Assembly: GCA_012517355.1 (NCBI GenBank)
Contig: JAAYVD010000112.1
Span: 2,769-66,768, forward strand
Source: Candidatus Rifleibacteriota bacterium
GTDB taxonomy: Bacteria; Muiribacteriota; Ozemobacteria; Ozemobacterales; Ozemobacteraceae
DNA: 64,000 nucleotides
Reading direction: 5' to 3'
Both the position numbers and the translations under genes were made by a program. A model generated the notes under the pieces. The model was not told the origin of the DNA. It saw nothing but the letters and a program-made list of their open reading frames with translations, and did not search any database. This document shows positions 30,795-47,891 of the stretch, in pieces; position 1 is the stretch's first letter, and the number at the start of each line of letters is the position of its first letter.

Positions 30795-30824
30795 GTGACA
30801 TCGTCGGCAGGGTTCTGGTATGAT
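30795..30824 (+). promoter_or_regulatory. Extended -10 promoter of the signalling operon
   Basis: GTGACA-18 bp-TATGAT with TG extension. Confidence 0.55.
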
Positions 30825-30856
30825 GCTGCCAACCAATGATTGCCAAGGAGGCCGCC

Positions 30857-31186
30857 ATGGAATTCGAGGTCACGACCACCGAGGGACGCCGGATCATCGC
30901 CAGCAAGGGTGATGTGCTGCACACCTGCGCCGAGGAGTTCGCGCGCGTGATCCGCGAGCAGGTCGAGGAAGGCCACCAGGTGATCGTGCTCGATTTCAGC
31001 AAGGCCAGCATGATCGACAGCGCGGGCATCAGTTCCATCGTGGCCAACATCGGCCTGGTCAAGGAACGGAACGCCCGCATCATCCTCGGCGGCTGCAATC
31101 CGACCATCCAGAAGGTGTTCCAGTTGATCGGGTTCAAGCAGCATTTCGCCGTGACCGGTACCCTGGCCGAGGCCCTGAAGGCCTGA
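30857..31186 (+). CDS. STAS-domain anti-sigma-factor antagonist
   Basis: IVLDFSKASMIDSAGISSI, IQKVFQLIG; AAGGAG RBS. Confidence 0.92.
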   Translation: MEFEVTTTEGRRIIASKGDVLHTCAEEFARVIREQVEEGHQVIVLDFSKASMIDSAGISSIVANIGLVKERNARIILGGCNPTIQKVFQLIGFKQHFAVTGTLAEALKA

Positions 31187-31207
31187 CCGGAACGGAGGAG
31201 AAGCCGC

Positions 31208-32404
31208 ATGTTCGCCCTCAAAGGATTTTCCGAATCGGATTTCGAGGTGCTGCGCCGGTATCTGACCCGGCAGACGGCGACCAAGAACCAGGTGTTGATG
31301 GAGGCGGGGAAACCCGCGTTGCAGATGTTCCTCATCGAGGAAGGCTCGGTGAAGATCGTGCAGCGCCCGGCGAAGGATGCCGGCGACGACGTGGTGCTGG
31401 GGGCGGTGAAGGCCGGCGGTTTCTTCGGCGAGGAGGCGCTGCTCGGCGAGCAGCAGATCTACGCCAACACGGCGGTTTCCATGGAGAACACCACCCTGTT
31501 CACCCTGGGCAAGGAAGGCCTGCAGAAGCTGATGGTCGAGGCGATGGGGGTCGGCACCAAGTTGCTGCTGGCGTTGACCAAGTCCTACCGCGAGGCCCTG
31601 GCCACCCCGGAGCAGATGGCGAAGGTGCTGACCTTCTACAGCCCCAAAGGCGGAACCGGCTGCACCACGTTGGCGGTCAGCTTCGCGTGCCAACTGGCCC
31701 GGCTGCGCAAACGGGTGGCCTACATCGACGCCGACCTGCAGTTCGGCAACGTGTCGCTGCTGATCGGGGCCCCACCCGCGCTGCACCTGGCCCGCCTGAT
31801 CCAGAAGGAGACCTCGCTGACCTTCGATCGCATCAAGGGGTACCTCCATCGGAAGCACGAAGTCGACTTCCTCTTTTCCCCCGACCAGCCCCAGGAAGCC
31901 GAGATGATCTCGCGTTCCAACCTCAACCAGGTGCTGCAGGCGATCGGGCGCCAGTATGACTTCATCGTCGTCGACACCTCCTCCCAGATCGACGACCACA
32001 CCCTCCTGCTGTGGGACATGGCCGACGTGCTGGCCCTCGTCACCAACGCCGACCTGCCGGGGCTGACCCGCATGCACCGGCTGTTCAAGGTGATGGGCCG
32101 GTTGAACTATCCCAAGGCCAAGTTCGCCTTGCTGGCCAACCGGTTCGGCGATGGCCAGGAGGCCTGCCTGGCGGAACTGCGCAAGCTGCCGGTGGGCCAC
32201 GTGCAGACCCTGCAGGCAGACCACGCCAACGCCCAGGCGGCCGTCATCGCCGGCGTGCCGCTGGCCCTGCAGGCCCCGGCGTCGCCCGTCACCAAGGCCC
32301 TGGAGGAACTCCTCCGCTACCTGCTGGGCGAGGAGGCGATCGCCCGCTCGCAACAGAAGGGCGGCATCTTCTCGCGGCTGAAAACCCTGATCGCCGGCGC
32401 CTGA
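31208..32404 (+). CDS. Cyclic-nucleotide-binding domain fused to a CpaE/TadZ-MinD-type ATPase
   Basis: N-terminal MFLIEEGSVKI..GGFFGEEALL (cNMP fold); C-terminal FYSPKGGTGCTT, IDADLQFG, YDFIVVDT, GGIFSRL tail. Confidence 0.88.
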   Translation: MFALKGFSESDFEVLRRYLTRQTATKNQVLMEAGKPALQMFLIEEGSVKIVQRPAKDAGDDVVLGAVKAGGFFGEEALLGEQQIYANTAVSMENTTLFTLGKEGLQKLMVEAMGVGTKLLLALTKSYREALATPEQMAKVLTFYSPKGGTGCTTLAVSFACQLARLRKRVAYIDADLQFGNVSLLIGAPPALHLARLIQKETSLTFDRIKGYLHRKHEVDFLFSPDQPQEAEMISRSNLNQVLQAIGRQYDFIVVDTSSQIDDHTLLLWDMADVLALVTNADLPGLTRMHRLFKVMGRLNYPKAKFALLANRFGDGQEACLAELRKLPVGHVQTLQADHANAQAAVIAGVPLALQAPASPVTKALEELLRYLLGEEAIARSQQKGGIFSRLKTLIAGA

Positions 32405-32418
32405 GCTGAGGAACCACG

Positions 32419-33267
32419 ATGAACAAACAGCCGGAGGCGGTCGGGACGGCCGATCGGCCTCTGTCGCTCGGGCAGGGGGTCACCTGGGTCGGCTTCTGGG
32501 ACTCCGAGGCCGGCCTGCGCTGCAATCCCTACCTGGTCTGCGACGGGGACGAGGCGGTCCTGATCGACGGCGGCAGCCGCCCCGACTTCTCGACGGTGAT
32601 GATGAAGGTCTTGCAGGCGGGGGTTTCGCCCCACCAGATCAAGGCCCTCGTCTATTCGCATTTCGACCCCGACCTGTGCGGCAGCCTCCCCAACCTCGAG
32701 GACATGATTCGGCGCCCCGACCTGGTGCTGATCTCGGCCGCTCCCAACCACATGTTCATCCGCCACTACTCGACCACCTCCCGGATGGTCTCCCTGGCGG
32801 AAACCGGGTTCCGGTTCCGGTTCGCCAGCGGGCGGGAACTGCGGTTCACCCCCACCCCGTTCGCCCACGCGCCGGGCAGCTTCGTCACCTTCGACACCGC
32901 CACGGCGATCCTGTTCACCGGTGATCTGTTCGGCAGCCCGGGAGCGGGCGACAGCATCTTCCTGTCCCTGACCCCCACCTGTCACACCGACCACGACCGG
33001 GCCCATTGCCCCGAAGGGCGGGGAACCTGCCCCCTCCATGACCTCGCCCGGTTCCACAAGCAGGTGATGCCTTCGACCCTGGCTTTGCGGCACGCGATGG
33101 CCACGGTGCGCACCATCCCCTTCAAGGCCCTGGCCCCCCAGCACGGGGCGGTCATCCGCGAGGAGAAGGACGCCGAACTGGCGATCCGGACCCTGGAGAC
33201 GCTCGAGAACGTCGGGATCGACGGGGTGGTCGCGCAGGACCCGCAGTTGACCGACCGGAGTTACTGA
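32419..33267 (+). CDS. MBL-fold di-iron protein, ODP/FprA-N-terminal-like (no flavodoxin domain)
   Basis: CNPYL, LIDGG, SHFDPDLCG, PFAHAPG, LFTGDLFG, FHKQVMPS, APQHG. Confidence 0.85.
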   Translation: MNKQPEAVGTADRPLSLGQGVTWVGFWDSEAGLRCNPYLVCDGDEAVLIDGGSRPDFSTVMMKVLQAGVSPHQIKALVYSHFDPDLCGSLPNLEDMIRRPDLVLISAAPNHMFIRHYSTTSRMVSLAETGFRFRFASGRELRFTPTPFAHAPGSFVTFDTATAILFTGDLFGSPGAGDSIFLSLTPTCHTDHDRAHCPEGRGTCPLHDLARFHKQVMPSTLALRHAMATVRTIPFKALAPQHGAVIREEKDAELAIRTLETLENVGIDGVVAQDPQLTDRSY

Positions 33268-33269
33268 CC

Positions 33270-34259
33270 GTGACCGGCCCGATCGACTTCGACGAGATGC
33301 TGGCGAAGGTCGCCCCCGACAACCCGAATCGTTCCTTTCTGCTCAAGAGCCTGATCGAGATCCGCGCGGGCCAGGACGACCAGGCCCTGATGACCAGGCT
33401 GATGACCGGCCTCGTGATGAAATACGCCGAGAGCGAGCGGCAGCTGAACCGGCTCAACGCCGAACTGCGCGAGAAACAGGAGCACCTCGACGCCGACCTC
33501 AAGGCCGCCGCGGTCATCCAGACGGCGCTGCTGCCCAAGCCCCTGCCCGCCGCCTCGAACGTGCGCGCCGCCTGGAAGTTCGTTCCCTGCCAGAGCATCG
33601 GCGGCGACGTGTTCCTGCTCACGCCGCTGGGCAAGCGGTATCTGATGGTGGCCGTCGTCGACATCAGCGGTCACGGGGTACCCTCGGCCATGGTGACCGT
33701 CTCGGTCTGCCAGTTCCTGCAGCCCCAGGCGGGAACGGTCTTCCAGCCCGGGGCCGGCCCCGACGGCGCGGTGGTGCCACCCGGCCAGGTGCTGGCCTCG
33801 CTCGACCGCGAGTTTCCCTATTTCCGTTTCAAGAAGACCTTTTCGATCTTCTACGGCGTGCTCGACCGCGTCACCGGCCGGTTCACCTTCGCCAACGGCG
33901 GGCACCCGCAACCCTTCCTGCAGACCCCCGACGGCGCCCTCACCACCCTCGAGGAGCACGGCCCCATCATCGGCATGGGCCTGGGCTCGACCTTCCCGGA
34001 AGGGTCGCTCACCCTCTCCCCCGGCAGCCGCCTGACCTTCTACTCCGACGGCCTGACCGAATGCCGCAACCCCTCAGGGGAGCTGTTCGGTGACGACCGG
34101 GTGCGCGACCTGCTCGCCGCGCACCACGCCCTGCCCCTCCCCGACCTCGCCGCCGCGATCCATGCCGGGGCCAGCAGATTCGTGGCGGGAGCGGGTTTTC
34201 CCGATGACTTCACCCTCGTCCACCTGGAGTTCGCCGGCCCGCCCGCCTCCCCCGCTTGA
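33270..34259 (+). CDS. PP2C/SpoIIE-type (RsbU-like) serine phosphatase
   Basis: AAVIQTALLP, IGGD, DISGHGVPSA, ANGGHP, YSDGLTE, DDFT; short coiled-coil N-terminus. Confidence 0.93.
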   Translation: MTGPIDFDEMLAKVAPDNPNRSFLLKSLIEIRAGQDDQALMTRLMTGLVMKYAESERQLNRLNAELREKQEHLDADLKAAAVIQTALLPKPLPAASNVRAAWKFVPCQSIGGDVFLLTPLGKRYLMVAVVDISGHGVPSAMVTVSVCQFLQPQAGTVFQPGAGPDGAVVPPGQVLASLDREFPYFRFKKTFSIFYGVLDRVTGRFTFANGGHPQPFLQTPDGALTTLEEHGPIIGMGLGSTFPEGSLTLSPGSRLTFYSDGLTECRNPSGELFGDDRVRDLLAAHHALPLPDLAAAIHAGASRFVAGAGFPDDFTLVHLEFAGPPASPA

Positions 34260-37141
34260 GGGACGGCGACCAGCAGCACGTCCCCGCCATGGTCACCGCC
34301 ACGCCAGCGGCATCGCCGGGGATGTTTCCTCAGACGGCCTTCCCCCACCCCTCCGGCACGGTTCGGCAGTTCGTCGCCGCCCGGTGGGAGTTGCAGGGAA
34401 CCGGTGGGAAACCGCCCCAACACCCGCGAGATCCGGGCCGCCCGGCGACCCGGGTCAGTGGCCCCGGCCGGCCGTGGCCGGAAGCGGGTTTATGGCGTGC
34501 GGGCTGGCTGGCCTTGTCACTGGTGTGCCTGATCCTGCTGGCCGACCCCGCCCTCGTCGCGGCTGCCGAAGGCCGGGGAACGGAGGGGGACCAACTGCAG
34601 ACCGGTCCCTGGTGGGGCATCGGGCCGCTGGCGGCGACCGCCTCGCCGGCCGGTCTGCTCTCTTCAGCGGGCAGGCCAGACCCGGGGCGTGATCATCCCG
34701 GCCGGGACGGCCCGACGCGCTGGCGCGAGGTTCCCGCCTGGGCCGACCCCGGGGAGATCCACGACGTGGCCGGAGAACTGGCCACGGGCAACGGCCCCGC
34801 CTCGGCCGCGGCTTTCCAGGTTCTCTCCAGCCCGGCCGGCGGCGAGGCCTGGTGGTATGTCAGCGCGGACGACCTGTTCGAAGGCTGGGTGAACGGGGAA
34901 CGGGTGGCCTGGCAGGACCGGCCCCTGGACTGCCGGCCCCGGCGACGGGCGATCCGGATCCGCTTGCGCCCGGGGGCCAACACGGTCTTCCTGGCCCTGG
35001 CGAACGTCGATGGGCGTTTCTGCTTCGCCAGCACGTTCGAGGCCATCCCCGACCTCCCCGGGGAGGTGGTCCGGCTGCGGCGGACCATCGGGCGGTGGCC
35101 CCGCGTGTTCGACCGCGAGGCCGCCCTGGCACTGCTCGGGTATCTGCGGGGAACCCCTCTGCCGGAGTCGGCCTTTCCCTATTACGATTCGGAGTTCATG
35201 CGGTCGATGACCGAACCCGGCGAAGAGATCGGGCGGCTGCAGGACGACCTGGACCAGCCGGGGACCGGGGCCCTGCGTCCGTCGAGGTTGTTCCGGCTGG
35301 CGGAGGTCATTCGCGACGCCGGGTTGGCGGAAGAGGCGTCGACCTGGCTGCTCCACCTTCTGGCCGGGCGATTCGCGGCCTCTCTCGCGGGCGTGGCCGG
35401 GGGGACGGTCCCAGGCAGGGATCCGGCGGGGAAGGCCGTGGGGGCGGACGGCCCCTCGGCGGGGCGCGAAACGGATGATTCGCGCCGCCATCCGTGGGGG
35501 CAAAGGGGCCCTTCCGACATCGGGCCGGTCGACCCCCTGGTTGGGCGTGAGCGGGGTGGCACGCCCCGCCAACCGGGGCGCGGAGGGGACCCGGACGAGA
35601 TGGGGCCGGACCGGACGGCGGCGGATTTCGGCCCGGTCGTACAGCAGACGCCCTGGCTGCTGGCGGGACCGGGGGCCGACCTGACGCGGGCGGTGGCCGC
35701 CAGTCTGCTGGGGCCGGACGGCACCGTCGACTGCCGCCGCCCCCTGCCGGGTCTCGCCGGCCAGAGGTCAGACTCCCTTCCCGACCCTCGACCGGATCGG
35801 CCCCTTCGCGATGCCCGAAGCGGGCGTTTCGCGCCGCCATCCGTGGCGACCAAGGGGCCCTTCCGACATCGTGTCGGTCGGCCCCTTTGCGGTGCGCGAA
35901 ACTGGCGTTTCGCGCCGCCATCCGTGGCGGCAAAGGGGCCCTTCCGACATCGTGTCGGTCGGGACGAGGGAACGGAGCCGGGGGCGGGCGCCGAACGCGC
36001 CCGGGGTGCGGATTCCTGGCGGTTGGTGGCCTCCTGGACGACGGAGACGGGGCCCCACGACATCGCCGACGTGGTAGCCGGGCCGACCGACGGGCAGGCG
36101 GTCCTGCTCACGCGGACGCTCTTCGCCTCCGCCGAGGTGGACGCCTGGGTCTTCCTGGCCGCCGACGACTGGCTGGACGTCTGGCTCAACGGCCGCCACC
36201 TGTTCGCCCCCAACGGGCGGCCCAGCGCCTTCCTCCCCCGCCAGCAGGTGGTGAAGGTGCGTTTGCGGCGGGGGGTGAACCCTTTGCTCCTGCGGGTCGA
36301 GAACCATGCGGGGGCCTGCGCCTTCGCCCTGGAGGTGCATCCGCTGGCCGACTGGCCGGCGCGGAGCGCTCGGCTGGTCCGGCTCATCCGGTCGTTTCCG
36401 CCCGCCTTCGACCCGGACCTGACCGCCGGGGTGCTCCCCTTTCTCGCCTGGCCGCGTCTTCCCCGTCGCCTGGCGGACGCCTATCGCGAGCTGACCTTCC
36501 ACCCGATCGCCGACCCCGAGGCGGAGATCCGGTTCCTGCAGCAGGCGCTGCGCACCGCGACCGAGCCGATAGCCCTCGATGCCGCCCGGTTCCGCCTGGC
36601 CGAACTCTGCGGGCAACTCGGACTGGGTGGGATCCTGGGGCGGCACCTGCGGTCCCAGCGGGACCGGGCCGGACTCGACGGGCCCCGCCTGTGGCGCGGG
36701 GCGCTGGCGGTGTTCCACTCCGGCCGGTTCGCCGAGGGGATCGGGGAGCTCCAGCGGGTGGCGGACCTGTTCCCGGAACTGGGGGCCGCCCGCCTGGGCC
36801 TGGCCGAGGTGCTCTCCTGGAGGGCCTGGCAGACGCTGGATTACCGGGTGCGGGACCAGGCCTGGGAGGCCTGGCAGCGGGTGGACCGGGCGGACCGCGC
36901 CCGACCGGCCGCCCTGGCCGCCCAGGCCGGCCTGTGGTACCTGTTCGCCCGGAAGGACACGGCCAACCGGTGGTTCGAAGCCGCCCTGCGGGCTGACCCG
37001 CGGAACCTGTCCGCCTGGCTGACCCGGTGGGAGGTCCGCTCACCCTTTCCCGACCAGGCGGCGGAAGGGGCCTATCTGCGGGAGTTCGCGGTCTGGGACG
37101 ACCGGACCGCCCGCGAATGGTACCGGGAGATCGAACCGTGA
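34256..37141 (+). CDS. Exported hypothetical protein: two copies of a beta-sandwich (ADD..W-x-NG) plus helical module, C-terminal TPR; start uncertain
   Basis: YVSADDLFEGWVNGE..IRLRPGAN repeated as FLAADDWLDVWLNGR..VRLRRGVN; signal-like WLALSLVCLILLA; 4-bp overlaps with both neighbours. Confidence 0.7.
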   Translation: MRDGDQQHVPAMVTATPAASPGMFPQTAFPHPSGTVRQFVAARWELQGTGGKPPQHPRDPGRPATRVSGPGRPWPEAGLWRAGWLALSLVCLILLADPALVAAAEGRGTEGDQLQTGPWWGIGPLAATASPAGLLSSAGRPDPGRDHPGRDGPTRWREVPAWADPGEIHDVAGELATGNGPASAAAFQVLSSPAGGEAWWYVSADDLFEGWVNGERVAWQDRPLDCRPRRRAIRIRLRPGANTVFLALANVDGRFCFASTFEAIPDLPGEVVRLRRTIGRWPRVFDREAALALLGYLRGTPLPESAFPYYDSEFMRSMTEPGEEIGRLQDDLDQPGTGALRPSRLFRLAEVIRDAGLAEEASTWLLHLLAGRFAASLAGVAGGTVPGRDPAGKAVGADGPSAGRETDDSRRHPWGQRGPSDIGPVDPLVGRERGGTPRQPGRGGDPDEMGPDRTAADFGPVVQQTPWLLAGPGADLTRAVAASLLGPDGTVDCRRPLPGLAGQRSDSLPDPRPDRPLRDARSGRFAPPSVATKGPFRHRVGRPLCGARNWRFAPPSVAAKGPFRHRVGRDEGTEPGAGAERARGADSWRLVASWTTETGPHDIADVVAGPTDGQAVLLTRTLFASAEVDAWVFLAADDWLDVWLNGRHLFAPNGRPSAFLPRQQVVKVRLRRGVNPLLLRVENHAGACAFALEVHPLADWPARSARLVRLIRSFPPAFDPDLTAGVLPFLAWPRLPRRLADAYRELTFHPIADPEAEIRFLQQALRTATEPIALDAARFRLAELCGQLGLGGILGRHLRSQRDRAGLDGPRLWRGALAVFHSGRFAEGIGELQRVADLFPELGAARLGLAEVLSWRAWQTLDYRVRDQAWEAWQRVDRADRARPAALAAQAGLWYLFARKDTANRWFEAALRADPRNLSAWLTRWEVRSPFPDQAAEGAYLREFAVWDDRTAREWYREIEP
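35450..35530 (+). repeat. 81-bp repeat copy in-frame within CDS
   Basis: ggcccctcggcggggcgcgaaacggatgattcgcgccgccatccgtgggggcaaaggggcccttccgacatcgggccggtc. Confidence 0.9.
35799..35960 (+). repeat. Two tandem 81-bp repeat copies in-frame within CDS
   Basis: Units 35799-35879 and 35880-35960; peptides RPLRDARSGRFAPPSVATKGPFRHRVG and RPLCGARNWRFAPPSVAAKGPFRHRVG. Confidence 0.95.
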
Positions 37142-40100
37142 CCCGCGCGGCTCCCCCGGGCACCGCCCCGGTCGTTCCCCCGGTCGCTTCCCCGGTCGCT
37201 TCCCCGGTCGTGTCGCCTTCCGCTTCCCCGGACACGCGCCTGGGCGTTTCCCCGGCCGACTCCCCGGCCCCCCTCCAAGCGCCCACCGCTGTGGACGCCC
37301 CCGCCGCGTTCCCGGCGGACCTGTCCCCGCTCCCGACCGACCCGTCGTCGGCCGGCGCCCCGGGCGGCCCGGGGCGGGGGAACGGGCCGCCGGTTGCGGA
37401 CCGGGCCCAGGGGTCCCCGCCCCGCGGGCCGCGCGCCGCCTGGATCTCACTGGTCATGAACTGGGGGGTCCCGTTCCTGCTGAGTCTGCTGCCGCTGGTG
37501 GTCCTGCACCTCGCGGCCGGAGAGGAGCAGGCCAGGCGCGGAGCGGATGCGCGCCGGGAGCGGCGGGAACGGGTCCGCCTCCAGGCCGACCATCTGCGCC
37601 GGGCCTCGTCCTTCCCGTTCTGGGCCGAGCGGGCCGCCCGCCTGCTCAAGCGGGGCGCCCTGGCCGGGCTGGCCGGGACCCAAAGCCGGGGGCAGAACCC
37701 CGGCCACGCCGCCGCCCCGCCCCACACCGGGGACGTCTCCGGAATCGGCCCACCCCCAGCCAAGGGCGAAGCGGCCGTGCCGATCCGTCATCCGTGGCCC
37801 CCACCAGGAGATCCTTCAGACATCGGGTCGGGTGGGACGGGCCATTTCGGCGGACCGCGGTCGCCCCCTTCCCCAACCGGAACCGCCGCCACTCCCGACC
37901 CCTCATCGGCCGAAATCGGGAGGCCGGTCGGGGTGCCGTTTTCCGGCGGGCGGCCAGGCCGGTTCCTCGTGCCCACCCCCGCCCCGGGAGGCGGGCCGGC
38001 AACCAACCGCGCCGGGGTGGCGGAAGCTCTGGCCAGGGGCCTGGGGACGGCCCTGCGTCGCCTGCAGAGATCGGAACCCCGGCCAGGGGCGGCCACGCCG
38101 TTTCGCGGCAGGCGGGGCGGCCAGGGCATCCTGCCGACCTCTGAGCGGTCGAACCTGGCGGGGTGCCAGGTATGGGCCGTTGCCTTTCCCACCGGGAATC
38201 CGGCCGAGGGGGTGGAACCCTGCCGGGCCCCTCCCCTCCGCCAGGATTTCTCCGCCCTGATGACCGGCCTGTTGCAGGACATCGGCCGGCAGCAGGCGAT
38301 CGAGGCGGAGGAGGGAAAGGCGGCGCGCCACGCCGGGGGGGGCAAGAATGACGAGAGCGGTGGGGGAAGCGAGAGGCCGGCCGGGCCGTTCGACGCCACC
38401 CGGCTGCGGAGGCTGGAGGCAGGCTTCGGTGAGGGGTTGTCCGCCGACCTGTTCACCGGCAGCCACCGCGGAACCGGCTTTCCCGTGCTGTTCCGCGGAA
38501 TTCCCCACATCATGGTCTGGGACCTCGTCTTCTTCCGGGAACGGACGGTCGGGGCCTTCCTGGTGCTGCTGCCGCTGCCCGACGAGGCCGGCCACGCCGC
38601 GCTGCAGTTGACCCTGCGGTACTGGCCGAAAGGCGGGTTCCGGCCGGCGTTTCTGCCCATGCCGACCGAGCGGCGGGGGATCCTGCCTCCCCCCCTGCTC
38701 CACCCCGACCTGGTCCGGGCCCCCGTCCTGGCCGACATCGAGCGGCTTCGTCGCCAGATGCGGATCTGGCAGCCGGCCGGCACCCGGTTCGAGGGCACCC
38801 GGGTGGGGCTGCTGGCCCCCTTCACCGGCCGGCTGGTCCGGTTGCCGGCCGCCGCGGGATGGTGGGGCATGGTCACCCCCCTCGATCCGCTGACGGGACA
38901 CCTGGGACTGCTGGTCGGACGCTTTCCCGACCTGCCCCCCTCCGCCCTGGATCTGTTCCGCGGGATGGCCGACATGGCCTGGATCTTCGTCTGGATCATG
39001 GTCGCCATCCGGGCCGCCCTGGTGGGGACGCGCCCGGCCGGCGTCCGGCGTCAGGCCACCCTGTGGCTGCTCGGCGTCACCGGCATGCCGGTGGTGCTGG
39101 GGATCATGGTCGGCGTCCAGCTGAACGGAGACCTGCGTTCCAACCGGCTCGAGCAGCTCGAACGCGACCTGGAACGGGCGATGGGCGACCTGGAGACCGG
39201 CGCCAACCGGCTCAACGACCGCATCGTCCAGCAGTGCAAGGAGCGGTTCCATGAGGGGGGGTTCCGGGCGGCCCTGCGGCAGGCCATCGCCAACCCAGCC
39301 GCCCGGGAAGGGTTCCTGCGCGACCTGGCCGCGGGCTTCCGGCGGCACGGGCTGCCCATCTCGGGCCTCCGGGTGATGGGACGGGACGGCCAGGCCATGG
39401 AATCCTTCGCGCCCTGGCTGCGGCAATTGTCCATCCGGCAGCTGCAGGCAAGCCTGCAGGATGCCTGGGACCTGTATCTCGCCGGGCCCGATGGGGGCCG
39501 GAAAAGGCCGACCACCACCCTCGCCAGGTGGCAGCAGAACGTCTTTGCCGTCAAGGGGGCCGAGGAACAGCCGCTCGCCTGGCAGTCGGGCAACCGCAAG
39601 TTCTTCCTCTGGCGGATGATCATACAGGAGAAGGGCCGGCCGTTCTGCCAGGTGGCGGTGGTCTGGAGCCACGAGAAGCTGTACCGGGCCTACCTCGAGC
39701 GGGCGGTGCAGGGACCGGGGCTGTTCTCCGGCCGGACCGACCTCTCCCTGTCGGTCTATCTGCCGCAGGGGGACGACCTCGAGGAGGTTGGTGCCTCCGC
39801 CAATCTGGTGGCCGGGCGCGAGGATCTGCGGCGAGTGGCCCGGGCAGCGGTGCGGGCGAAGATGCGCCGGATCACGGAGGATGCCCTGACGGTGGGTTTC
39901 CCGAGCGAGCGCCTGCCGGGCTACGTCTTCCTGGGCCAGGCGTCGCTCGCGCCCCTGCGGGCGGAGCTGTGGCGGGAATGGCTCGGCATCGGCATCGTCA
40001 CCCTCGGGCTGTTCGCCCTCGTGCTCGCGGCGGCGCGGCTGCTGGGGTTCCGGCTGGCCGCGCCGGTGGTGCGCATGACCGCGGAACTGCGGCGGGTGGC

Positions 40101-43100
40101 CGCCGGAGACTACGCGGCCCGGGTCGGCGACGACCGCCGGGACGAGCTGGGACAGGCCGGCCGGGCGCTGGACCGCATGACCGGCTGGCTGGCCGAGCGG
40201 CAGGAGATGAGCCGGTTCGTCTCCTCCCAGGTGCTGGACGTGGTGGCCGCCGGGGACTACCGGGGGGCCATGGCCGGCACCCAGCGCGAGGTGGCGATCC
40301 TGATCTCGGACATCCGGTCGTTCACCACCCTGTCGGAGGAGCATCCGGCCCGGGATATCTTCGCCCTGGTGAACGGGCACATGGAGGCCATGACCCGCGC
40401 CATCCAGGCGGAAGGCGGGATGATCGACCGGTTCGTCGGGGACGCCGTGCAGGCGGTCTTCTACGCGGCCGAGGCCGGAACGCCGGGGGTGGGCGGCCCC
40501 GCCGACCGCGCGATCCGGGCGGCCCGGGCGATGCGCAAAGCGCATCTGGCCAGGATCGAGGCCCGCCGGCGGGAAGGGTTGTTCCCCTACGAGATCGGCA
40601 TCGGCATCGAGCAGGGAACGGTGGTGGCCGGCGTCATGGGCGACGGGCAGGCCCGGCTGGACTTCACGGTGCTGGGAGAGCCGGTACAGGCCGCGGCCGA
40701 ACTGGAAGCCGGCTCGAAGCACGGCACCGCCACGAAGATCATCGTCTCCGACCTGGTCAGGCAGACCGTTGGCGAGAGTGTCCCGTGCCGCCGCCTGCCC
40801 GACGGCCACCCCGGCTGGGAACTCGCTTCGCTCGAGGAGGGCGCTCCCCCCGCCTCCCCCGCCTCCCCCGCCGTCCCCCTTCCCGATCCCGCCCCCATCA
40901 CGCCAGCCCGGCCTCCCCGCCTCCCCCGCCCTGATCCCCCCACCTTCCCATCCGCCCACCACCGCACCTCCCACCTTCCCTCCCTCGCAAGGCCATCATC
41001 TCCCCAACCCGCCACGCTCCCCGCGCCTCACCCCCCGCCTCCCCACCTCGCCGCCTCCCCCTTTCCCTCCTACGGCGGCCTGCTTCCCCTGCTGGTTCTG
41101 TGGCTGGTGCCCGCCGGCCTCCTCTTTCTCGGGGCGGCGGCCCTGCGACAGGCGGGAATCCGCCAGGCGATCGGCGAGGCGAGGGACCAGGTGCGGGAAC
41201 GCCTCGGCCGGCTGGAGGGGGAGATGCGGCCGGAAACCCTGGCGGCAAGGCTGCTCGCCGGAATCGTCATCGGGGCCGGCCACCCTCGCCGGGGAACGCC
41301 GGCCGGCCCTCTGAACCCGGAGGAAGCCAACCGCCTCGGACGGGCGTTGGCCAGCGCCAACGCGAAATCTGCCGGCGCGGCGACGACGGCCAGGCCGGGG
41401 AGGCCGTCATCCGGCCGCTTTTTCGTCCTCTCCGCCCCCGCCGACATCGATCCGGGATCGGCGTGGGGGACCGAATACATGCCCAGGATCCGGCCCGCCC
41501 AGGTGCGGCTCCTGTTCCAACGCGCCCGGGGCGACTTCCCCCTGAGCCTCGACGAGGTCCGCCGATTCGCCACGATCCTCCTCATGATGGAGATCGACCC
41601 CCTGTTCACCCCCAATCGCTCCTATTTCCGCCTGTCCGACTGGTTCTACCGGTGGTTCCAGCGCTTCTTCGTCGGGCCTCGCGGGGGAGCCATCGGCCAC
41701 CACGGGTTCATCCGCAACGCCCTGCTGTCCCGCGGCAACCTGCTGCCGATGCGCTTTTGCGAAAGCGACTGGCTGATGTTCTGGCTGCCGGTCAGGCGGC
41801 AGCCCGGTGCCGGTGATGGCGGAAACCGGACCGCCCAGGAGGGGCCGGGAACGGACCGGGGACTCCCGAGAACCGGCGGCACTGGCCTCTCAGCCCGTTC
41901 AAGCCGGGATGAGGGGGATCCTGACGGGGACGGGCCCCGCCCGGAGGAAGCCCGCCAGGGGGGCATCAGCCAGGCCACGGTCATCGGAAGCGGATCGCCC
42001 GGGGCAATCCCCGCCGGCACCCCGCCAGGGCCGTACTCCCCGCCAGCCGGGGACCGGGCGGCTGCCGCGGAGGGGCCGGTGGCGGGGCTGGTATTGGCTT
42101 TCCTGCCCGGCAAGGGGCTGGCACCCGAGGCCGGCTACCGATTCCTGGCCCAGGACCTGGCCCGCCAGGGGTTTCCCGCCGCGATCGCCTGGAAGGCCGG
42201 TCGGAGACGCCGCCTCGTCCGCACGGGGGCCTTCCGGAAAGCAGGGCTGTCCGCACAAGAACCGGGCGACGCACCATTCACGCTCGAGGAGCGGGCGGGG
42301 TGGGTGGTCGGGTCGCAGGTGTCGGGGGGGCTCCGCCCCGCCCGGGTGTTCCTGGCCCGGGATTGGCACCGGCACCTGCCGTGGTCGGCACACCTGGGGA
42401 CAGCGGGGATCCTGGCCGCCGGGGGTTGGCTGCTGCTCGGGGGCTGGACGGTCTGGCGGCTGGGCCGTGGCGAACGCGGGGCCCCGGCCTCGTTGCGGGG
42501 CCTGCTGATGGGAACCTTCGCCCTGGTGGTGGTTCCCACCCTGGCCGTCGGGTTCTTCGGGGTCGAGCGGTCGCTGCTGGAGCGGGCCACCCGGCTGCGG
42601 GCCGACCGGGCCCGCGACCTGACCGACCTCCTGGCGGCGGTCGACCGCAGCCAGGACCTGGCCCTCACCTTCGCCTGCAACCTTGTGGCGACCCAGCTCG
42701 ACCGGCCGGAGTTCCTGGCCGACCTGGCCCGGTTCGAGAAAGGATGGCCACCACCCGACCGCCCCGATGCCCCGCCTCCGATGCGCTCCCTCCTGGTGGC
42801 CTGCCAGTTCCTGGGGCTGTGGCCGCGGGCCGCCGAACTGGTGTCGGTCACCGGCCTGACCGGCGGCAGCGGGCACGACCAGCGGTTTTTGGAAGCCCTG
42901 CGGTGGTTGTGGAACCGCAACCTGTCCGCCCGGCACGCCGCGGCGGGGGCCGACCTTCCCGTCTCGCAGCGGCGCGCGAACCTGGTGGTGGGGACCCAGG
43001 TGGAGGAGTTCGGAACGATCCTCCGCAGCCTGATGCCTCCCGCGGGTCTCGCGGCCTGGATGAGCGCGCCCCGCGCGGTGGTGTCGGTCAGCTCCTCTCT

Positions 43101-44448
43101 GGAGGAGCCCCAGTTCTTCTCGACCCACCACCTGCGCCGGGACGGCATCCCCACCTGGATCGCCGAGGTACAGTTCTCCCAGGGGCCTCTCCTGCGGCTC
43201 GCCCTCGAAGACTGGGACCGGTATCTGGCCCTGGCCCCCCACCCCGGATGGCGGATCGGCGTCTCCAAGCGGACGTTTCCCGGATGGCGGCTGGTCTCCC
43301 CCTTCGTATCGACCGACTGGGAACCGGGTCCGAAACCGGCCGACCCAGGCTTCTACCGGCAGACCCCGACCGTTCGGGGCGAGGAACCCCGAACGACCCT
43401 GCTCTGCCGGATGGCCGCCGAGGGCGGGCGGCCCGCCATCGTCCTTCCCGAGAGACGGGCGACCGGTCGGCTGTTCGCCGCCACGCCGGGTGGGGGGCCC
43501 GGCAACCTGCTGTTCTACGGCTCCCTGCCGGCGGCGGCCATCTTCGACGAGGCCGAAACCCAGGCCGCCGGCCAGCGCGGGCTCCTGCTGGCGCTGGCCG
43601 TCCTGGCCGCCCTGCTGGCCGCCGGCGTGGCCGAGGCCTTCCTGCAGCCGCTGCTCGCCCTGGCCGCGGCCGCCCGCCGCCTGATGGGGCGCGAGTTCAC
43701 CGCCCGCGTGCCCCAGGACCGGGACGACGAGTTCGGCCACCTGGCCACCGCCTTCAACGAGATGGCGGCCGGGGTCGAACAGGGGCGGCGGCTCCGGCGG
43801 TTCGTCTCCGACTCGGTCCGCGTCGCGGCCGGGAACCGCGACCGCGCCGCCGCCGCCCGGGCCGGTGAGCACCGGGAGGCGGTCGTCCTGTTCGCCGGCC
43901 TCGGAGGGTTCAAGCCCCTGCTGCACACCGTGCCGCCCACCGCACTGGTCGCCGACCTCAACCGGTTCCTGGCGGGCGCGGCGGCCGCGGTGCGGGCCGA
44001 GGGCGGCGAGATCGACAAGTTCATCGGCGAAAAGGTGCTGGCCGTCTTCCACCCCGACCGCTTCGGGTCGGCCACCGCCGCCCTGGCCGCCGCCCTGCGC
44101 GCGGCGACCCGTCTGGCCGAAGACACCCGCGCCCTGCCGGCCTGGCGCGACCACCCGGTAGGCATGGGCCTGGTGGCGGGGAAGGTCCTGGCCGGCATCC
44201 TGGGCACGGCCGAGGTGCGCCTGGAATACACCGTCCTCGGCGATACCGTCAATCTCGCCGCCCGACTGTGCGACCTCGCGCTCCGGGAGGGCGGCGGCCT
44301 GGCCGTCGAGCAGGAGTCGCTGGCGCGGGCGGACGCCCTGGCCGACCCCCGGTTCCGACGGCTGGGCGGGATCGCCCTCAAGGGCAAGACCCGCACCGTC
44401 GACTGCTGGCTGGCCCCGTCCCTCGGCCGGCCGGCCGGAACCAGGTGA
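37138..44448 (+). CDS. Giant membrane class III adenylate/guanylate cyclase with two TM-HAMP-cyclase halves
   Basis: GTG overlapping upstream TGA; HAMP (RRDELGQAG; RDDEFGHLATAFNEM); cyclase motifs ISDIRSFTTLSE/DRFVGDAV and DKFIGEKV/YTVLGDTVNLAARL; about 4 TM per half. Confidence 0.9.
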   Translation: MTRAAPPGTAPVVPPVASPVASPVVSPSASPDTRLGVSPADSPAPLQAPTAVDAPAAFPADLSPLPTDPSSAGAPGGPGRGNGPPVADRAQGSPPRGPRAAWISLVMNWGVPFLLSLLPLVVLHLAAGEEQARRGADARRERRERVRLQADHLRRASSFPFWAERAARLLKRGALAGLAGTQSRGQNPGHAAAPPHTGDVSGIGPPPAKGEAAVPIRHPWPPPGDPSDIGSGGTGHFGGPRSPPSPTGTAATPDPSSAEIGRPVGVPFSGGRPGRFLVPTPAPGGGPATNRAGVAEALARGLGTALRRLQRSEPRPGAATPFRGRRGGQGILPTSERSNLAGCQVWAVAFPTGNPAEGVEPCRAPPLRQDFSALMTGLLQDIGRQQAIEAEEGKAARHAGGGKNDESGGGSERPAGPFDATRLRRLEAGFGEGLSADLFTGSHRGTGFPVLFRGIPHIMVWDLVFFRERTVGAFLVLLPLPDEAGHAALQLTLRYWPKGGFRPAFLPMPTERRGILPPPLLHPDLVRAPVLADIERLRRQMRIWQPAGTRFEGTRVGLLAPFTGRLVRLPAAAGWWGMVTPLDPLTGHLGLLVGRFPDLPPSALDLFRGMADMAWIFVWIMVAIRAALVGTRPAGVRRQATLWLLGVTGMPVVLGIMVGVQLNGDLRSNRLEQLERDLERAMGDLETGANRLNDRIVQQCKERFHEGGFRAALRQAIANPAAREGFLRDLAAGFRRHGLPISGLRVMGRDGQAMESFAPWLRQLSIRQLQASLQDAWDLYLAGPDGGRKRPTTTLARWQQNVFAVKGAEEQPLAWQSGNRKFFLWRMIIQEKGRPFCQVAVVWSHEKLYRAYLERAVQGPGLFSGRTDLSLSVYLPQGDDLEEVGASANLVAGREDLRRVARAAVRAKMRRITEDALTVGFPSERLPGYVFLGQASLAPLRAELWREWLGIGIVTLGLFALVLAAARLLGFRLAAPVVRMTAELRRVAAGDYAARVGDDRRDELGQAGRALDRMTGWLAERQEMSRFVSSQVLDVVAAGDYRGAMAGTQREVAILISDIRSFTTLSEEHPARDIFALVNGHMEAMTRAIQAEGGMIDRFVGDAVQAVFYAAEAGTPGVGGPADRAIRAARAMRKAHLARIEARRREGLFPYEIGIGIEQGTVVAGVMGDGQARLDFTVLGEPVQAAAELEAGSKHGTATKIIVSDLVRQTVGESVPCRRLPDGHPGWELASLEEGAPPASPASPAVPLPDPAPITPARPPRLPRPDPPTFPSAHHRTSHLPSLARPSSPQPATLPAPHPPPPHLAASPFPSYGGLLPLLVLWLVPAGLLFLGAAALRQAGIRQAIGEARDQVRERLGRLEGEMRPETLAARLLAGIVIGAGHPRRGTPAGPLNPEEANRLGRALASANAKSAGAATTARPGRPSSGRFFVLSAPADIDPGSAWGTEYMPRIRPAQVRLLFQRARGDFPLSLDEVRRFATILLMMEIDPLFTPNRSYFRLSDWFYRWFQRFFVGPRGGAIGHHGFIRNALLSRGNLLPMRFCESDWLMFWLPVRRQPGAGDGGNRTAQEGPGTDRGLPRTGGTGLSARSSRDEGDPDGDGPRPEEARQGGISQATVIGSGSPGAIPAGTPPGPYSPPAGDRAAAAEGPVAGLVLAFLPGKGLAPEAGYRFLAQDLARQGFPAAIAWKAGRRRRLVRTGAFRKAGLSAQEPGDAPFTLEERAGWVVGSQVSGGLRPARVFLARDWHRHLPWSAHLGTAGILAAGGWLLLGGWTVWRLGRGERGAPASLRGLLMGTFALVVVPTLAVGFFGVERSLLERATRLRADRARDLTDLLAAVDRSQDLALTFACNLVATQLDRPEFLADLARFEKGWPPPDRPDAPPPMRSLLVACQFLGLWPRAAELVSVTGLTGGSGHDQRFLEALRWLWNRNLSARHAAAGADLPVSQRRANLVVGTQVEEFGTILRSLMPPAGLAAWMSAPRAVVSVSSSLEEPQFFSTHHLRRDGIPTWIAEVQFSQGPLLRLALEDWDRYLALAPHPGWRIGVSKRTFPGWRLVSPFVSTDWEPGPKPADPGFYRQTPTVRGEEPRTTLLCRMAAEGGRPAIVLPERRATGRLFAATPGGGPGNLLFYGSLPAAAIFDEAETQAAGQRGLLLALAVLAALLAAGVAEAFLQPLLALAAAARRLMGREFTARVPQDRDDEFGHLATAFNEMAAGVEQGRRLRRFVSDSVRVAAGNRDRAAAARAGEHREAVVLFAGLGGFKPLLHTVPPTALVADLNRFLAGAAAAVRAEGGEIDKFIGEKVLAVFHPDRFGSATAALAAALRAATRLAEDTRALPAWRDHPVGMGLVAGKVLAGILGTAEVRLEYTVLGDTVNLAARLCDLALREGGGLAVEQESLARADALADPRFRRLGGIALKGKTRTVDCWLAPSLGRPAGTR

Positions 44449-45228: not shown

Positions 45229-46434
45229 TCAGTAGGGCGGCAGCAGGCGCCGGAATCCGTGGGCGAGGACCACGGCCAGGAAGAAGAGGTTGCGGGCCAG
45301 CCGCGCTCCCCACCAGGGCCACTGCACGGTGGTCGCTCCCGGTTCGCCGGCGACGGAGGCGGCGACCTCTTCCAGGTAGGCCGGTGAGCACGGCCAATCC
45401 GCCAGGCCTGCCACCCAGTCGGCGGGAAACCCTGCCGGGCCGACGCCCGCCCCCAGGATGCCGCCCAGGATGGCACCGGTCGTGTCGGCATCCCCGCCGG
45501 CGCCGATCATGGCGGAGAGGGCGGTCCGGGGGTCGTCGCCCCAGCGGAACCAGCACAGGCAGACGGCAGGCACCGTATGCAGGATGTAGCCCGACACTCC
45601 ATGCGGCGACCCCAGATCCGCCGCAAAAGCGGCCACCGTGGCGGCGGGGGAGTCGGCTTCCCTCGTCGCGTTGGGAGCGACCGGGAATTCCCCTGAACCG
45701 GAGAACGAAGCCGGCGATACCGCCGGGCCGGAGGCCGGAACCTGGGGGCCGCCCGGTGCAGGTGGGGGAAGGGAGGCCCCGGCGGCCGCGGCCTGGCGAA
45801 GGGCCTCCAACAGCGTGGGACCCGCCGGGTGGCCGGCCAGGGCGGCCGCCACTTCGTCCACGAAGGCGGCGGGATCGGGCCGGCCCCCGCCCTGGCGCAT
45901 GGCCTGACGGGCCGCCAGGGCGATGACCAGGGCCCCGGCCTCGGCCCGGGGATCGGTGTGGGTCAGGCGAGTCGACACCCGCACCAGCTCGGCAAGGCGG
46001 GCGGGGTCGTCGCCGGCCACCACCCCGAGGACGGTGGCCCGCATGGCCGGCCCGTTCCCGGCCGAGACGACCCCGGCGGTGGCCGGCGACCAGCCCAGCC
46101 AGAGTTTTCCCAGGGCCCGCAGAGTGGCCCAGCCCACCCCGGCGGGCAGGGCGGCCACCCACCAGCGCAGGTAGCCGGCCAGGGCCAGGCCGAAGGCGGC
46201 CGGCTCGCCGCCGCTGTCCCGACAGGCGAGGGCGGTCAGCACGGCATGCTCGGTGTCGTCGGACACCATGCCCCGGCCGAACAGGAACCGGTGGCGGAGG
46301 GGCGGCGGGAACAGGCGGGCCAGGCGCCGGGGCGACAGGTTCTCGCAGGGCAGGCCCAGGCTGTCGCCGAGAGCCTGTCCGAGAAGGCAGCCGGCCAGGG
46401 CGCGGCGACGATGGTCGCTGGCCGGGAGGCTCAC
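45229..46434 (-). CDS. ADP-ribosylglycohydrolase (DraG/ARH family)
   Basis: GQALGDSLG, VSDDTE, SAGNGPAMR, LTH, GGDADTTGAILG. Confidence 0.92.
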   Translation of the reverse strand: MSLPASDHRRRALAGCLLGQALGDSLGLPCENLSPRRLARLFPPPLRHRFLFGRGMVSDDTEHAVLTALACRDSGGEPAAFGLALAGYLRWWVAALPAGVGWATLRALGKLWLGWSPATAGVVSAGNGPAMRATVLGVVAGDDPARLAELVRVSTRLTHTDPRAEAGALVIALAARQAMRQGGGRPDPAAFVDEVAAALAGHPAGPTLLEALRQAAAAGASLPPPAPGGPQVPASGPAVSPASFSGSGEFPVAPNATREADSPAATVAAFAADLGSPHGVSGYILHTVPAVCLCWFRWGDDPRTALSAMIGAGGDADTTGAILGGILGAGVGPAGFPADWVAGLADWPCSPAYLEEVAASVAGEPGATTVQWPWWGARLARNLFFLAVVLAHGFRRLLPPY

Positions 46435-47675
46435 CGGGGGGGACCCGGCGGAGCGGCGGGGCCTTCCATTTCCTTGGCCAGGATCCGGGCCACGCTGTGG
46501 ATATGGCTCAGCAACGAGGTGTAGCGGTTCAAAAACGGCAGGGACAACACCTCGTCAAACATCTTGCGGGCCTGGGCCGGCTGGCCGAGGCGGCGGTGGA
46601 GTTCCCCCACCAGGAAGCCGGTGACGATCACCCCCCGTTCGCTGAGGGGTTCCTGATTGGTCTCCATGCGCGAGGTGCGGATCGTCGCCGAGGGATACCT
46701 GCCGTCGGTCATGAAATAGGGGTTGTAGGCGCGCTGGAGGCAGGCGAGGGCCCGCTCCTGGGCGAGCCGCTCCTGCACCGGGTGGCCGGCCCGGCGACAG
46801 AGCCAGGAACATTTCAGGAAGAACTCTCCGGCCAGCTTGAGGGAACCCCGCAGCCGCAGCGCCTCGGCCGCCACCGCCGCCAGTTCGAAACTCTTGACCC
46901 CGTGCAGGATGGTGCGCTCCCCCTGAAAACTGAGATTGAATGCCAGTTTCCGGCGGTCCTCGATGGCGGGGGGGGCCAGGAACTGGTGCCGGGGGCCGTC
47001 CTGGCAGGAGGCCTTGTCGAACATGCCGACGTAGTGCGCAAACAGGCAGCCCGGGCAGACCATCACCGTATACAGCTCGGGGTGGACGCTTCCCGGACAG
47101 ATGGGGCAGAAATCGGTGTCGGTGTCGCTGATGGGCACCGTCCACAACTTGAAGCGCAGCCCCTCGAACGCCTTCCCGCACACCGGGCAGGTCAGGGGGA
47201 CGACCCGCAGATAGGGATGCTCGTCGAAACGGGGAGCCGCCTCCCGGGTGTCGGTCTCCGGGGCGGCGGCCTCGGGCGAGGGAAGGACCTCGTCGTGCTC
47301 GACCAGTTCCAGCTCCTGCCGGAGACAGTTCAGGATCTGGATCAGGCGGGGGATGACGAGGGGTTTGACCAGAAGCCCCAGCGCCCCCTGGCGGATGCAC
47401 GACTGGGCGAGGCTCCCATCGAAGCGGGAACTCAGGAACACCAGCTTGGCATCGGGGGCGTTGGCCCGGGCCCGGGCCGAGACCTCTTCCACGGTCAGCT
47501 GCTGCTGGTCGAGGTCGATGAACCAGGCCACGGTCAGGGCGGTGGTCGACCACTTCTCGACAAGGTCCATGGTGGCGGCGAGCCGCGGGGAAAAGCCGTG
47601 CTCCCGGATGGTGAGTTCCAGCAGGACGGAATAGATCGGGTCCCGGCAGAGGATGATGACCTGCAACCGACGCAT
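46431..47675 (-). CDS. Receiver-like domain fused to a DUF2225-type zinc-binding/TPR-like domain
   Basis: N-terminal FIDLD..FLSS..GALGLLVKP; CPVC..DTDFC..Y.VMVCPGC..LKCSWLCR..LVGELHRRLG. Confidence 0.8.
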   Translation of the reverse strand: MRRLQVIILCRDPIYSVLLELTIREHGFSPRLAATMDLVEKWSTTALTVAWFIDLDQQQLTVEEVSARARANAPDAKLVFLSSRFDGSLAQSCIRQGALGLLVKPLVIPRLIQILNCLRQELELVEHDEVLPSPEAAAPETDTREAAPRFDEHPYLRVVPLTCPVCGKAFEGLRFKLWTVPISDTDTDFCPICPGSVHPELYTVMVCPGCLFAHYVGMFDKASCQDGPRHQFLAPPAIEDRRKLAFNLSFQGERTILHGVKSFELAAVAAEALRLRGSLKLAGEFFLKCSWLCRRAGHPVQERLAQERALACLQRAYNPYFMTDGRYPSATIRTSRMETNQEPLSERGVIVTGFLVGELHRRLGQPAQARKMFDEVLSLPFLNRYTSLLSHIHSVARILAKEMEGPAAPPGPPR

Positions 47676-47891
47676 GCCGATATCAGCTTCCGGTGCGGGT
47701 TACATCGGGACTGGACGCCATGGTTCCGGCCGCCTCCTCGGGAAGTGCATCCCCCTGTTGCCAAAAGGGGATGGATCTATGTACTATATACCTGTCGGGT
47801 GACCGGCGCGTCCAGTTTAGCCTGGCCGGCCACCATGAAGGCCAAGAGGACCAGGTCACCCCCGACAGAGGCGGGGAAAGGAAGACACGGA

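Follow-up and report, generated by a model that had tools for sequence, protein, structure and literature searches.

In the excerpts of two reviews (PMC4821796, PMC9552081), the class III nucleotide cyclases of bacteria are monomers that need to homodimerise, with duplication and fusion taking place in an early eukaryote; the homodimer is presented there as the bacterial rule and the pseudo-heterodimer as a eukaryotic invention. A mycobacterial homodimer is treated as an ancestor-like form (PMC9433096). Here we analyse a gene for a class III cyclase in a stretch of 64,000 nucleotides (nt) from Candidatus Rifleibacteriota bacterium, family Ozemobacteraceae (GenBank assembly GCA_012517355.1, contig JAAYVD010000112.1, positions 2,769 to 66,768, forward strand), hereafter the window, to which all positions refer. 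The gene encodes two cyclase domains in one chain, a C1-like domain (CHD1) and a C2-like domain (CHD2), each preceded by a HAMP domain (HAMP1, HAMP2). From its catalytic residues and domain order we consider it probable that the product is a single-chain pseudo-heterodimeric membrane receptor-cyclase, class IIIb-like and independently evolved, with one composite active site. Beyond what had been noted earlier for this DNA, its genome contains 12 fused versions of such a pair, this gene among them, and another 16 in which the pair is encoded by two genes.

Complementary catalytic residues in one chain

The gene lies in a plus-strand open frame at 37027..44448, and translation from the GTG at 37138 gives 2436 amino acids (aa) with 0 internal stops. 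Pfam profiles match HAMP twice (73.2 bits, cut-off 25) and Guanylate_cyc, PF00211, twice (70.2 bits, cut-off 21.9). By hydropathy each half has about four spans, between which lie periplasmic domains of ~290-485 aa, and the two cyclase domains are spaced ~1030 aa apart. The halves are alike solely from the middle of the HAMP domain through the cyclase domain, at 31% identity (E 1e-16).

Catalytic columns were read from HMMER alignments to solved cyclases, among which the best match of CHD1 is Pseudomonas aeruginosa CyaB (3r5g, E 2.6e-20) and that of CHD2 is OaPAC (5x4t, E 3.3e-16). Both metal-binding Asp residues are kept in CHD1, D1058 (codon at 40309) and D1102 (40441), together with the phosphate-loop motif around them. 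The remaining columns of CHD1 hold R1098 (Lys column), T1177 (Asp/Thr), Q1184 (Asn) and E1188 (Arg). CHD2 carries G2254 (43897) at the first metal Asp and E2298 (44029) at the second, and retains K2294 (44017), T2365 (44230), N2372 (44251) and R2376 (44263). A complete catalytic set is thus obtained only from CHD1 and CHD2 jointly, neither domain being complete alone. CHD2 alone also has a C-terminal Gly-Lys motif (G2416, K2417), nearly invariant in the family, which we take to be the motif that holds the gamma-phosphate Lys in mammalian C2. Class IIIb is reportedly defined, after Linder and Schultz, by a Thr that replaces the substrate-defining Asp and is paired with Lys. K2294 and T2365 form such a pair, align with the K and T of OaPAC and CyaB, and are retained in 26 of 26 orthologues.

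The first-pass annotation, made from the letters of this DNA, had described a single open reading frame (ORF) of ~2436 aa in two halves, each with about four membrane spans and extracytoplasmic domains followed by HAMP and cyclase. It had further assigned to the first cyclase domain the metal Asp pair, a lost Asn/Arg and an Arg at the Lys position, and to the second a lost Asp pair with Lys, Thr, Asn and Arg kept, a division of labour in the manner of mammalian C1 and C2. All of this stands: the frame is intact from GTG 37138 without a stop, Pfam and hydropathy agree on the two halves, the alignments to solved cyclases give the same residues and the same split, and all twelve codon coordinates map correctly.

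On these residues a working scheme can be proposed. Each half would consist of a four-pass membrane module with two periplasmic domains, then HAMP, then a class III cyclase. CHD1 would give the two metal Asp residues and the phosphate loop, and CHD2 the substrate-binding Lys and Thr with the transition-state Asn and Arg. If CHD1 and CHD2 pair head to tail, one full active site would result, along with a degenerate mirror site whose walls are R1098/T1177/Q1184/E1188 and G2254/E2298. From the Lys-Thr pair, ATP is the predicted substrate and cyclic AMP (cAMP) the predicted product, as in class IIIb. HAMP1 and HAMP2 are predicted to form a mixed four-helix bundle, which would relay the signals of two unlike sensor halves to the single site. 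The anatomy, the residue pattern with its conservation and the co-divergence of partners (below) are observed and the contacts are modelled; activity, substrate, in-chain pairing and regulation are what we infer.

Complementary domains in the genome, in orthologues and in the protein library

The assembly that holds the window is metagenome-derived (7.1 Mb, 184 contigs, 96% complete), with 87 matches to the Pfam cyclase profile. Searching its six-frame ORFs with a family-derived profile, we obtained 88 cyclase domains, which we sorted by the six catalytic columns into 26 complete, 32 C1-like, 29 C2-like and 1 neither. Twelve frames of 1632-2681 aa are fused (on contigs C7, C8, which is the window's, C16, C19, C29, C79, C88, C96, C98, C151, C152 and C183), with the C1-like domain always first and the C2-like second (12/12). 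A further 16 loci have both kinds in adjacent frames of ~1000-1300 aa, all 16 complementary, with the C1-like gene upstream at 13 and the C2-like gene upstream at 3. Every split partner corresponds to one half of the fused protein, having 3-4 hydrophobic spans, HAMP and cyclase; the two genes of the C34 pair share 4 nt. Where two domains are obligately paired, the label "adenylate/guanylate cyclase domain-containing protein" masks the pairing, so cyclase gene counts in such genomes overstate the number of enzymes.

Some loci depart from the simple pair. The C2-upstream loci are C85, C160 and C181 (first pair), and C160 and C181 form a sub-clade of their own on both the C1 and the C2 side. At the C20 locus (8646-18525) three receptor-cyclase genes are adjacent, two C1-like and one C2-like, and could provide alternative partners for one C2 subunit. 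Solitary degenerate domains are C1-like on C10, C22 and C166 and C2-like on C112.

Genomes of the window's family have 17-97 cyclase domains each, those of other families in the phylum 5-29. When 60 further genomes from the phylum were searched for the HAMP2-CHD2 type (E<=1e-30), 20 of the 24 from the window's family had it, in both fused and split frames; no genome from the other ten families gave more than one match.

To examine orthologues we used a word-seeded search of 5.8 billion proteins, which returned 28 long relatives besides the window's own entry, of 1487-2325 aa, 23 of them at least 1900 aa long; the unrelated P0032 was excluded from the counts. All named relatives are Candidatus Riflebacteria/Ozemobacteraceae, from metagenome-assembled genomes. 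CHD1 has D, D and R in 29/29, with Thr (18), Ser (10) or Gly (1) in the Thr column. Its Asn column never holds Asn (0/29; K 17, Q 5, R 4, A 2, S 1), nor its Arg column Arg (0/29; D 16, E 11, K 1, A 1). In CHD2 the first metal column lacks Asp throughout (0/27; G 20, A 5, K 1, S 1), the second holds E 16, D 9 and G 1 (n=26), and K, T, N and R are all present in 26/26. A search for shorter relatives with the window's HAMP1-CHD1 gave just two partial proteins and one 982-aa relative; split forms were found in the genome's own contigs and with a split query.

We then classified a wider sample. An HMMER scan of 1.84 billion cluster representatives with HAMP1-CHD1 as query gave 455 proteins at E<=1e-30, the best 150 of which were sorted with our own profile on six alignment columns. 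Among these best 150 of 455 were 93 C1-then-C2 tandems, one reverse tandem (P0287), one with two complete domains (P0280), three with a C1-like domain and a truncated second domain, 44 single C1-like proteins (mostly ~950-1100 aa), six single complete and two partial. The complementary pattern is thus present in 93 of the 95 two-domain proteins among the best 150 of 455; a C1-like query favours C1-like matches but puts no constraint on the second domain's state. A survey of tandem homologues had been suggested in the first-pass annotation, and here as in the 29 orthologue CHD1s the complementary loss is conserved, not random. P0280 (1971 aa) has all six residues in both domains and is possibly a stage preceding complementary loss; in P0287 (2111 aa) the C2-like domain is first and the C1-like second.

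The history of the domains was followed in a tree of 84 cyclase-domain rows from which the six catalytic columns had been removed; the long-branch C166_73123 was left out, as were, here and in the quick tree and Mantel test below, three domain matches shorter than 130 aa (including C7 CHD2). A single branch (ultrafast bootstrap 88, SH-aLRT 87) separates the 29 paired C1-like domains from the other rows. A 14-row clade (99/91) comprises the 12 fused CHD1s and the split C87 and C41, and the window's CHD2 falls in a 22-row all-C2 clade (96/99). A quick tree, which this careful tree supersedes, had put C1-like and C2-like clusters adjacent in a 61-row clade (support 93) that excluded 23 of 26 complete paralogues. 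Sub-clades correspond between the C1 and C2 sides. Identity matrices of the C1-like domains and of their C2-like partners are correlated (Mantel r 0.654, 0 of 5000 permutations as high; 27 of 28 pairs), and for 11 of the 27 pairs one and the same other pair supplies both the nearest C1 and the nearest C2. Partner domains co-diverge.

Because the fused genes nest among split ones, fusion looks secondary, and the tree suggests that a two-gene heterodimer, and not two equal copies joined directly, gave rise to the fused form. In the scheme we propose, a complete TM (transmembrane)-HAMP-cyclase gene would have been duplicated once in the Ozemobacteraceae lineage; complementary residues would have been lost while the copies were two adjacent genes; the pair would have been duplicated repeatedly as a unit; and one fusion would have followed in one sub-clade. 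C87 and C41, members of the fused clade, are now split again. The C87 pair (G000:C87:9738-16170, L013) occupies two frames that share 71 nt; a once-fused gene may here have been split secondarily or have acquired a frameshift, whether genuine or introduced by assembly.

With respect to INDEPENDENCE from eukaryotic cyclases, matches to solved bacterial class IIIb-type cyclases reach E 1e-20/1e-16 versus 1e-4 to 1e-2 for mammalian ones. An origin independent of eukaryotic cyclases is supported, because CHD1 and CHD2 resemble each other and bacterial cyclases far more than mammalian ones; the protein would share a way of working with the mammalian family without belonging to it. Independent evolution had also been put forward in the first-pass annotation, and the CHD1-CHD2 identity, the stronger bacterial matches and a tree of the genome's own domains that groups both types all bear it out.

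A broader proposal, which we offer tentatively and with some doubt, is that Ozemobacteraceae evolved obligately heterodimeric receptor-cyclases, ~28 units per genome, as two-input (coincidence or ratio) detectors with an allosteric mirror site. If this is true, complete paralogues, a complete tandem (P0280), two-gene pairs and fused chains coexist as a living model for a possible origin of the mammalian cyclases. The route would then be subfunctionalisation first and fusion second, as opposed to the fusion-first route proposed for eukaryotes in the excerpt of PMC9552081.

Modelled pairing and alternative explanations

A C1-C2 structure prediction had been named in the first-pass annotation as a check. 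We modelled HAMP1-CHD1 (972-1215) with HAMP2-CHD2 (2168-2436), ATP and two Mg. The model places HAMP1 on HAMP2 and CHD1 on CHD2, with a complex score of 0.78 in three runs (best of three controls 0.00), at least 93% of contacts shared among the runs and a partner pLDDT, the per-residue model confidence, of at least 88. Of 80 solved complexes 58 attained this mark, as did 2 of 110 mismatched pairs, figures that are a rough guide here, where our own alignment and ligands were used. In the model the interface extends from the helices of both HAMPs, via those immediately downstream (1017-1036 facing 2212-2227, where errors are lowest), to the cyclase cores, and includes K2294, T2365, N2372 and R2376.

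Several points weigh against a single-chain heterodimer with one composite site. The complex score may be a memory of solved class III dimers, and the run differed from its calibration in alignment and ligands. Because class III dimers are already solved, the model would indicate likeness, not binding, and it ranks neither hetero- over homo-pairing nor in-chain over swapped pairing. The second metal position of CHD2 is acidic in 25 of 26 orthologues, and the mirror site may bind some metal. Class labels rest on six columns, and the 150 library matches were picked with a C1-like query; P0280 and P0287, with two complete domains and reverse order, break the pattern. On the tree, the support for the C1 clade (88/87) is not decisive, and the C2-like group requires two changes. 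Finally, two sludge-metagenome runs, X1 and X2, that hold parts of this DNA are represented by short contigs, none of which spans the whole gene or the join at 40898-41100.

The alternative that survives best, though we think it unlikely, is that the composite site forms between chains, CHD1 of one copy with CHD2 of the other, giving two sites per dimer. The two-gene versions show that the halves can meet as separate polypeptides, and a 100-aa Pro-rich linker plus a whole membrane module separates CHD1 from CHD2, a geometry that does not force in-chain pairing. Fusion, however, raises the local concentration of the in-chain partner, and the fused form has been retained in 12 paralogues and in 93 library representatives (among the best 150 of 455); the data call for no higher oligomer, the complex model being one that leaves the two options unseparated.

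The heterodimer could also be real and its product other than cAMP, either cyclic GMP (cGMP) or another cyclic or linear nucleotide. The substrate is read from just K2294 and T2365, and the family is far from characterised enzymes, as the E value of the best solved match of CHD2 (3.3e-16) indicates. Yet the nearest solved relatives are adenylyl cyclases (CyaB, CyaC and the photoactivated OaPAC and bPAC) with Lys and Thr in the same columns, and there are 24 domains in the genome, two of them in the window, that bind cyclic nucleoside monophosphates (cNMP), although these do not separate cAMP from cGMP. We regard a product other than cAMP as having only a small chance.

Very improbable, in our view, is a dead pseudo-enzyme in which CHD1 pairs with CHD1 and CHD2 with CHD2 to make a scaffold or nucleotide-binding receptor. 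Each domain alone is without essential residues, and single degenerate domains do exist in the genome (C10, C112, C166); drift, however, would not retain complementary half-sets (D, D in 29/29 CHD1; K, T, N, R in 26/26 CHD2), and the complementarity recurs in the 93 tandem representatives (among the best 150 of 455) and at 16 split loci, with partners that co-diverge.

An assembly or sequencing artefact that joined two adjacent genes, for which one could cite a metagenome assembly in 184 contigs, a join in low-complexity Pro-rich sequence, the overlapping frames of the C87 pair and the lack of a public contig spanning the whole gene, is hardly credible against 12 fused frames in the genome, 23 of 28 orthologues of at least 1900 aa from other assemblies, 93 tandem representatives, and X1/X2 pieces at 40598-40898 and 41100-41391 that fit without difference and with no indels listed. 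Of the sampled words, a fraction of 0.49 is present in X1 and 0.41 in X2, in short contigs that show 0 or 1 differences from the gene per listed piece and no insertions or deletions. Their many short joints with 20-26-letter sides are most likely paralogues or other organisms. The independent fused relatives are a stronger argument against an artefact than the reads. No RNA data sets containing the stretch were listed.

Gene layout, surroundings and comparison with known cyclases

Features of the protein and of its neighbourhood are collected in Table 1. The start of the gene is uncertain, because the database entry for the same protein (P0003) has 2330 aa and begins at M107 (nt 37456). The first 100 residues of the long form are Pro/Ala-rich. 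Tandem repeats of 12 and 24 bp at 37152-37267 encode Pro/Val/Ala-rich N-terminal residues of the long form and cast more doubt on the 37138 start. The GTG at 37138 and the stop of the ORF before it have 4 nt in common. GC content at third codon positions in the cyclase ORF is 0.88, matching that of neighbouring genes. The uncertainty over the start leaves the domain and residue finding unaffected. Within the linker, short repeats of Pro codons lie at 40847-40879 and 40934-40984. TM2' is weak and Gly-rich (hydropathy score 1.25), and the paralogues have the same hairpin.

Table 1. Features of the cyclase gene and of neighbouring genes in the window (TM, transmembrane span; primes mark the second half).
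Feature	Position	Strand	Details
Whole ORF	37138..44448	+	2436 aa plus stop; alternative start 37456 (M107), 2330 aa
TM1, half 1	37444..37509	+	~aa 103-124; hydropathy segment aa 105-123
First periplasmic region, half 1	37510..38964	+	aa 125-609; Pro/Gly-rich stretch; no Pfam match
TM2-TM3 hairpin, half 1	38965..39123	+	~aa 610-662; hydropathy 613-631, 642-660
Membrane-proximal periplasmic domain, half 1	39124..39981	+	aa 663-948; possibly double-Cache-like fold by model
TM4, half 1	39982..40050	+	~aa 949-971; hydropathy 951-969
HAMP1	40051..40215	+	aa 972-1026; Pfam HAMP and own HAMP profile
CHD1, C1-like cyclase domain	40267..40773	+	aa 1044-1212; D1058, D1102, R1098, T1177, Q1184, E1188
Cytoplasmic inter-half linker	40783..41082	+	aa 1216-1315; 31% proline
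TM1', half 2	41083..41151	+	~aa 1316-1338; hydropathy 1318-1336
First periplasmic region, half 2	41152..42396	+	aa 1339-1753; no family match
TM2' and TM3', half 2	42397..42567	+	TM2' aa 1754-1772; TM3' aa 1789-1810 (hydropathy 1789-1807)
Membrane-proximal periplasmic domain, half 2	42568..43575	+	aa 1811-2146; poor model
TM4', half 2	43576..43644	+	~aa 2147-2169; hydropathy 2149-2167
HAMP2	43633..43800	+	aa 2166-2221; Pfam and own HAMP profile
CHD2, C2-like cyclase domain	43855..44412	+	aa 2240-2425; G2254, E2298, K2294, T2365, N2372, R2376, G2416-K2417
STAS protein	30824-31183	+
cNMP-binding ParA/MinD-type ATPase	31187-32401	+
ODP metallo-beta-lactamase-fold protein	32410-33264	+
SpoIIE-type (SpoIIE/PP2C) phosphatase	33042-34256	+
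961-aa ORF (P0002), no Pfam family	34256-37141	+	stop overlaps cyclase start by 4 nt
ADP-ribosylglycohydrolase and DUF2225 protein	45232-47699	-	downstream of cyclase
cNMP-binding protein	57770-58516	-	249 aa
TrkA-N and RyR domain protein	61462-63360	+

The membrane-proximal periplasmic domain of the first half was modelled with a mean pLDDT of 83.6 as a long helix with two alpha/beta modules. In Foldseek searches of the PDB it has 115 matches at E<=0.001, the top ones being double-Cache (dCache) ligand-binding domains of chemoreceptors and histidine kinases, at TM-scores of just 0.26-0.47. Matches to MkcA, TlpQ, vpHK1S-Z8 and Tlp3 have a Foldseek probability of 1.00 and E values down to 3.3e-7. 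An Atlas lead to dCache (0.93-0.94) shares 126-151 features, below the 170 typical of true members, and a Pfam profile scan of this domain gave no match. The corresponding domain of the second half gave a poor model (mean pLDDT 58.1) whose helices and strands follow one another as in the first, and its Atlas lookup returned nothing (best score 0.79). The two sensor inputs of the cyclase probably differ, because the halves are unlike in sequence outside HAMP-CHD.

Upstream of the cyclase, the run of genes at 30824-37141 may share an operon with it and serve as a partner-switching or cAMP-receiver module. The cNMP-binding proteins of the window and of the rest of the genome are candidate receivers of the cyclase signal. 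With 87-88 cyclase domains and 24 cNMP-binding domains in 7.1 Mb, the genome is exceptionally rich in second-messenger proteins. The 961-aa ORF contains an 81-bp tandem duplication at 35797-35962 (2.0 copies, 91% matches) that gives a repeated 27-residue stretch.

Among known systems, the mammalian membrane cyclases AC1-9 (class IIIa) offer the closest parallel in design. They too have one chain in the order membrane module, cyclase, linker, membrane module, cyclase; their first domain carries the metal Asp pair and their second Lys, Asn and Arg, with one active and one degenerate site; and their linker between the halves, like that found here, is long and variable (C1b). They have six TM spans per half, whereas the Ozemobacteraceae protein has about four plus large periplasmic sensors. 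They have the class IIIa helical domain and Lys-Asp, where the Ozemobacteraceae protein has HAMP twice and Lys-Thr. Sequence matches to them are weak (CHD1 with AC8 at E 9.8e-5 and with AC2 C2 at 8e-3; CHD2 with AC9 at 2e-3), and the Ozemobacteraceae family, unlike AC1-9, has two-gene forms beside the fused one.

Soluble adenylyl cyclase (sAC, ADCY10) is also a C1-C2 tandem in one chain with class IIIb-type residues. CHD1 aligns to its C1 region (residues 65-108) and CHD2 to its C2 region (residues 380-418). A Chloroflexus enzyme is reportedly a tandem as well. In contrast to sAC, which is soluble with C1 and C2 close together, the Ozemobacteraceae protein has ~8 spans, with a second membrane sensor and HAMP between its cyclase domains. 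In sAC, bicarbonate binds at the mirror site, which acts as a regulatory pocket; this is stated in the excerpt of PMC11006738, which also cites the bacterial sAC-like enzymes of Kobayashi et al. and a Chloroflexus relative.

Bacterial homodimeric TM-HAMP-cyclases share with each half of the Ozemobacteraceae protein the order of TM, HAMP and class III cyclase. Examples are the mycobacterial enzymes of the Rv3645/Rv1319c type. Such homodimers have all six catalytic residues in each chain and two sites, in contrast to the natural, complementary and conserved loss in the Ozemobacteraceae halves. That a one-site heterodimer can work is reportedly what the engineered complementary Rv1625c mutants of Guo et al. 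2001 show. In the two-gene eukaryotic systems, soluble guanylyl cyclase (sGC) alpha/beta and chytrid RGC/NeoR, two unlike subunits make one active site, as would those of the 16 split loci; the latter differ in being bacterial, membrane-bound, HAMP-coupled, operon-adjacent and predicted ATP users. The Rv1625c mutants are cited in the excerpts of both PMC4821796 and PMC9552081.

Our literature search returned no bacterial membrane-bound or HAMP-coupled pseudo-heterodimeric class III cyclase, with key reviews outside its coverage and a prior mention possible, and no report of cyclases in Riflebacteria or Ozemobacter, with most subscription papers outside coverage. If the proposed single-chain heterodimer holds, a bacterial lineage would have reached the C1/C2 split of labour independently, from a different subclass and with membrane and linker modules of another kind. 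The presence of split, fused and complete forms in one genome would provide a natural series, one that addresses why one-site cyclases evolve, what role the degenerate site has and how unlike sensors drive one centre through a mixed HAMP bundle. The principle itself is known from mammalian C1/C2, sAC and sGC; the lineage, the modules, the coexistence of split and fused forms and the scale seem, as far as we have searched, to be new.

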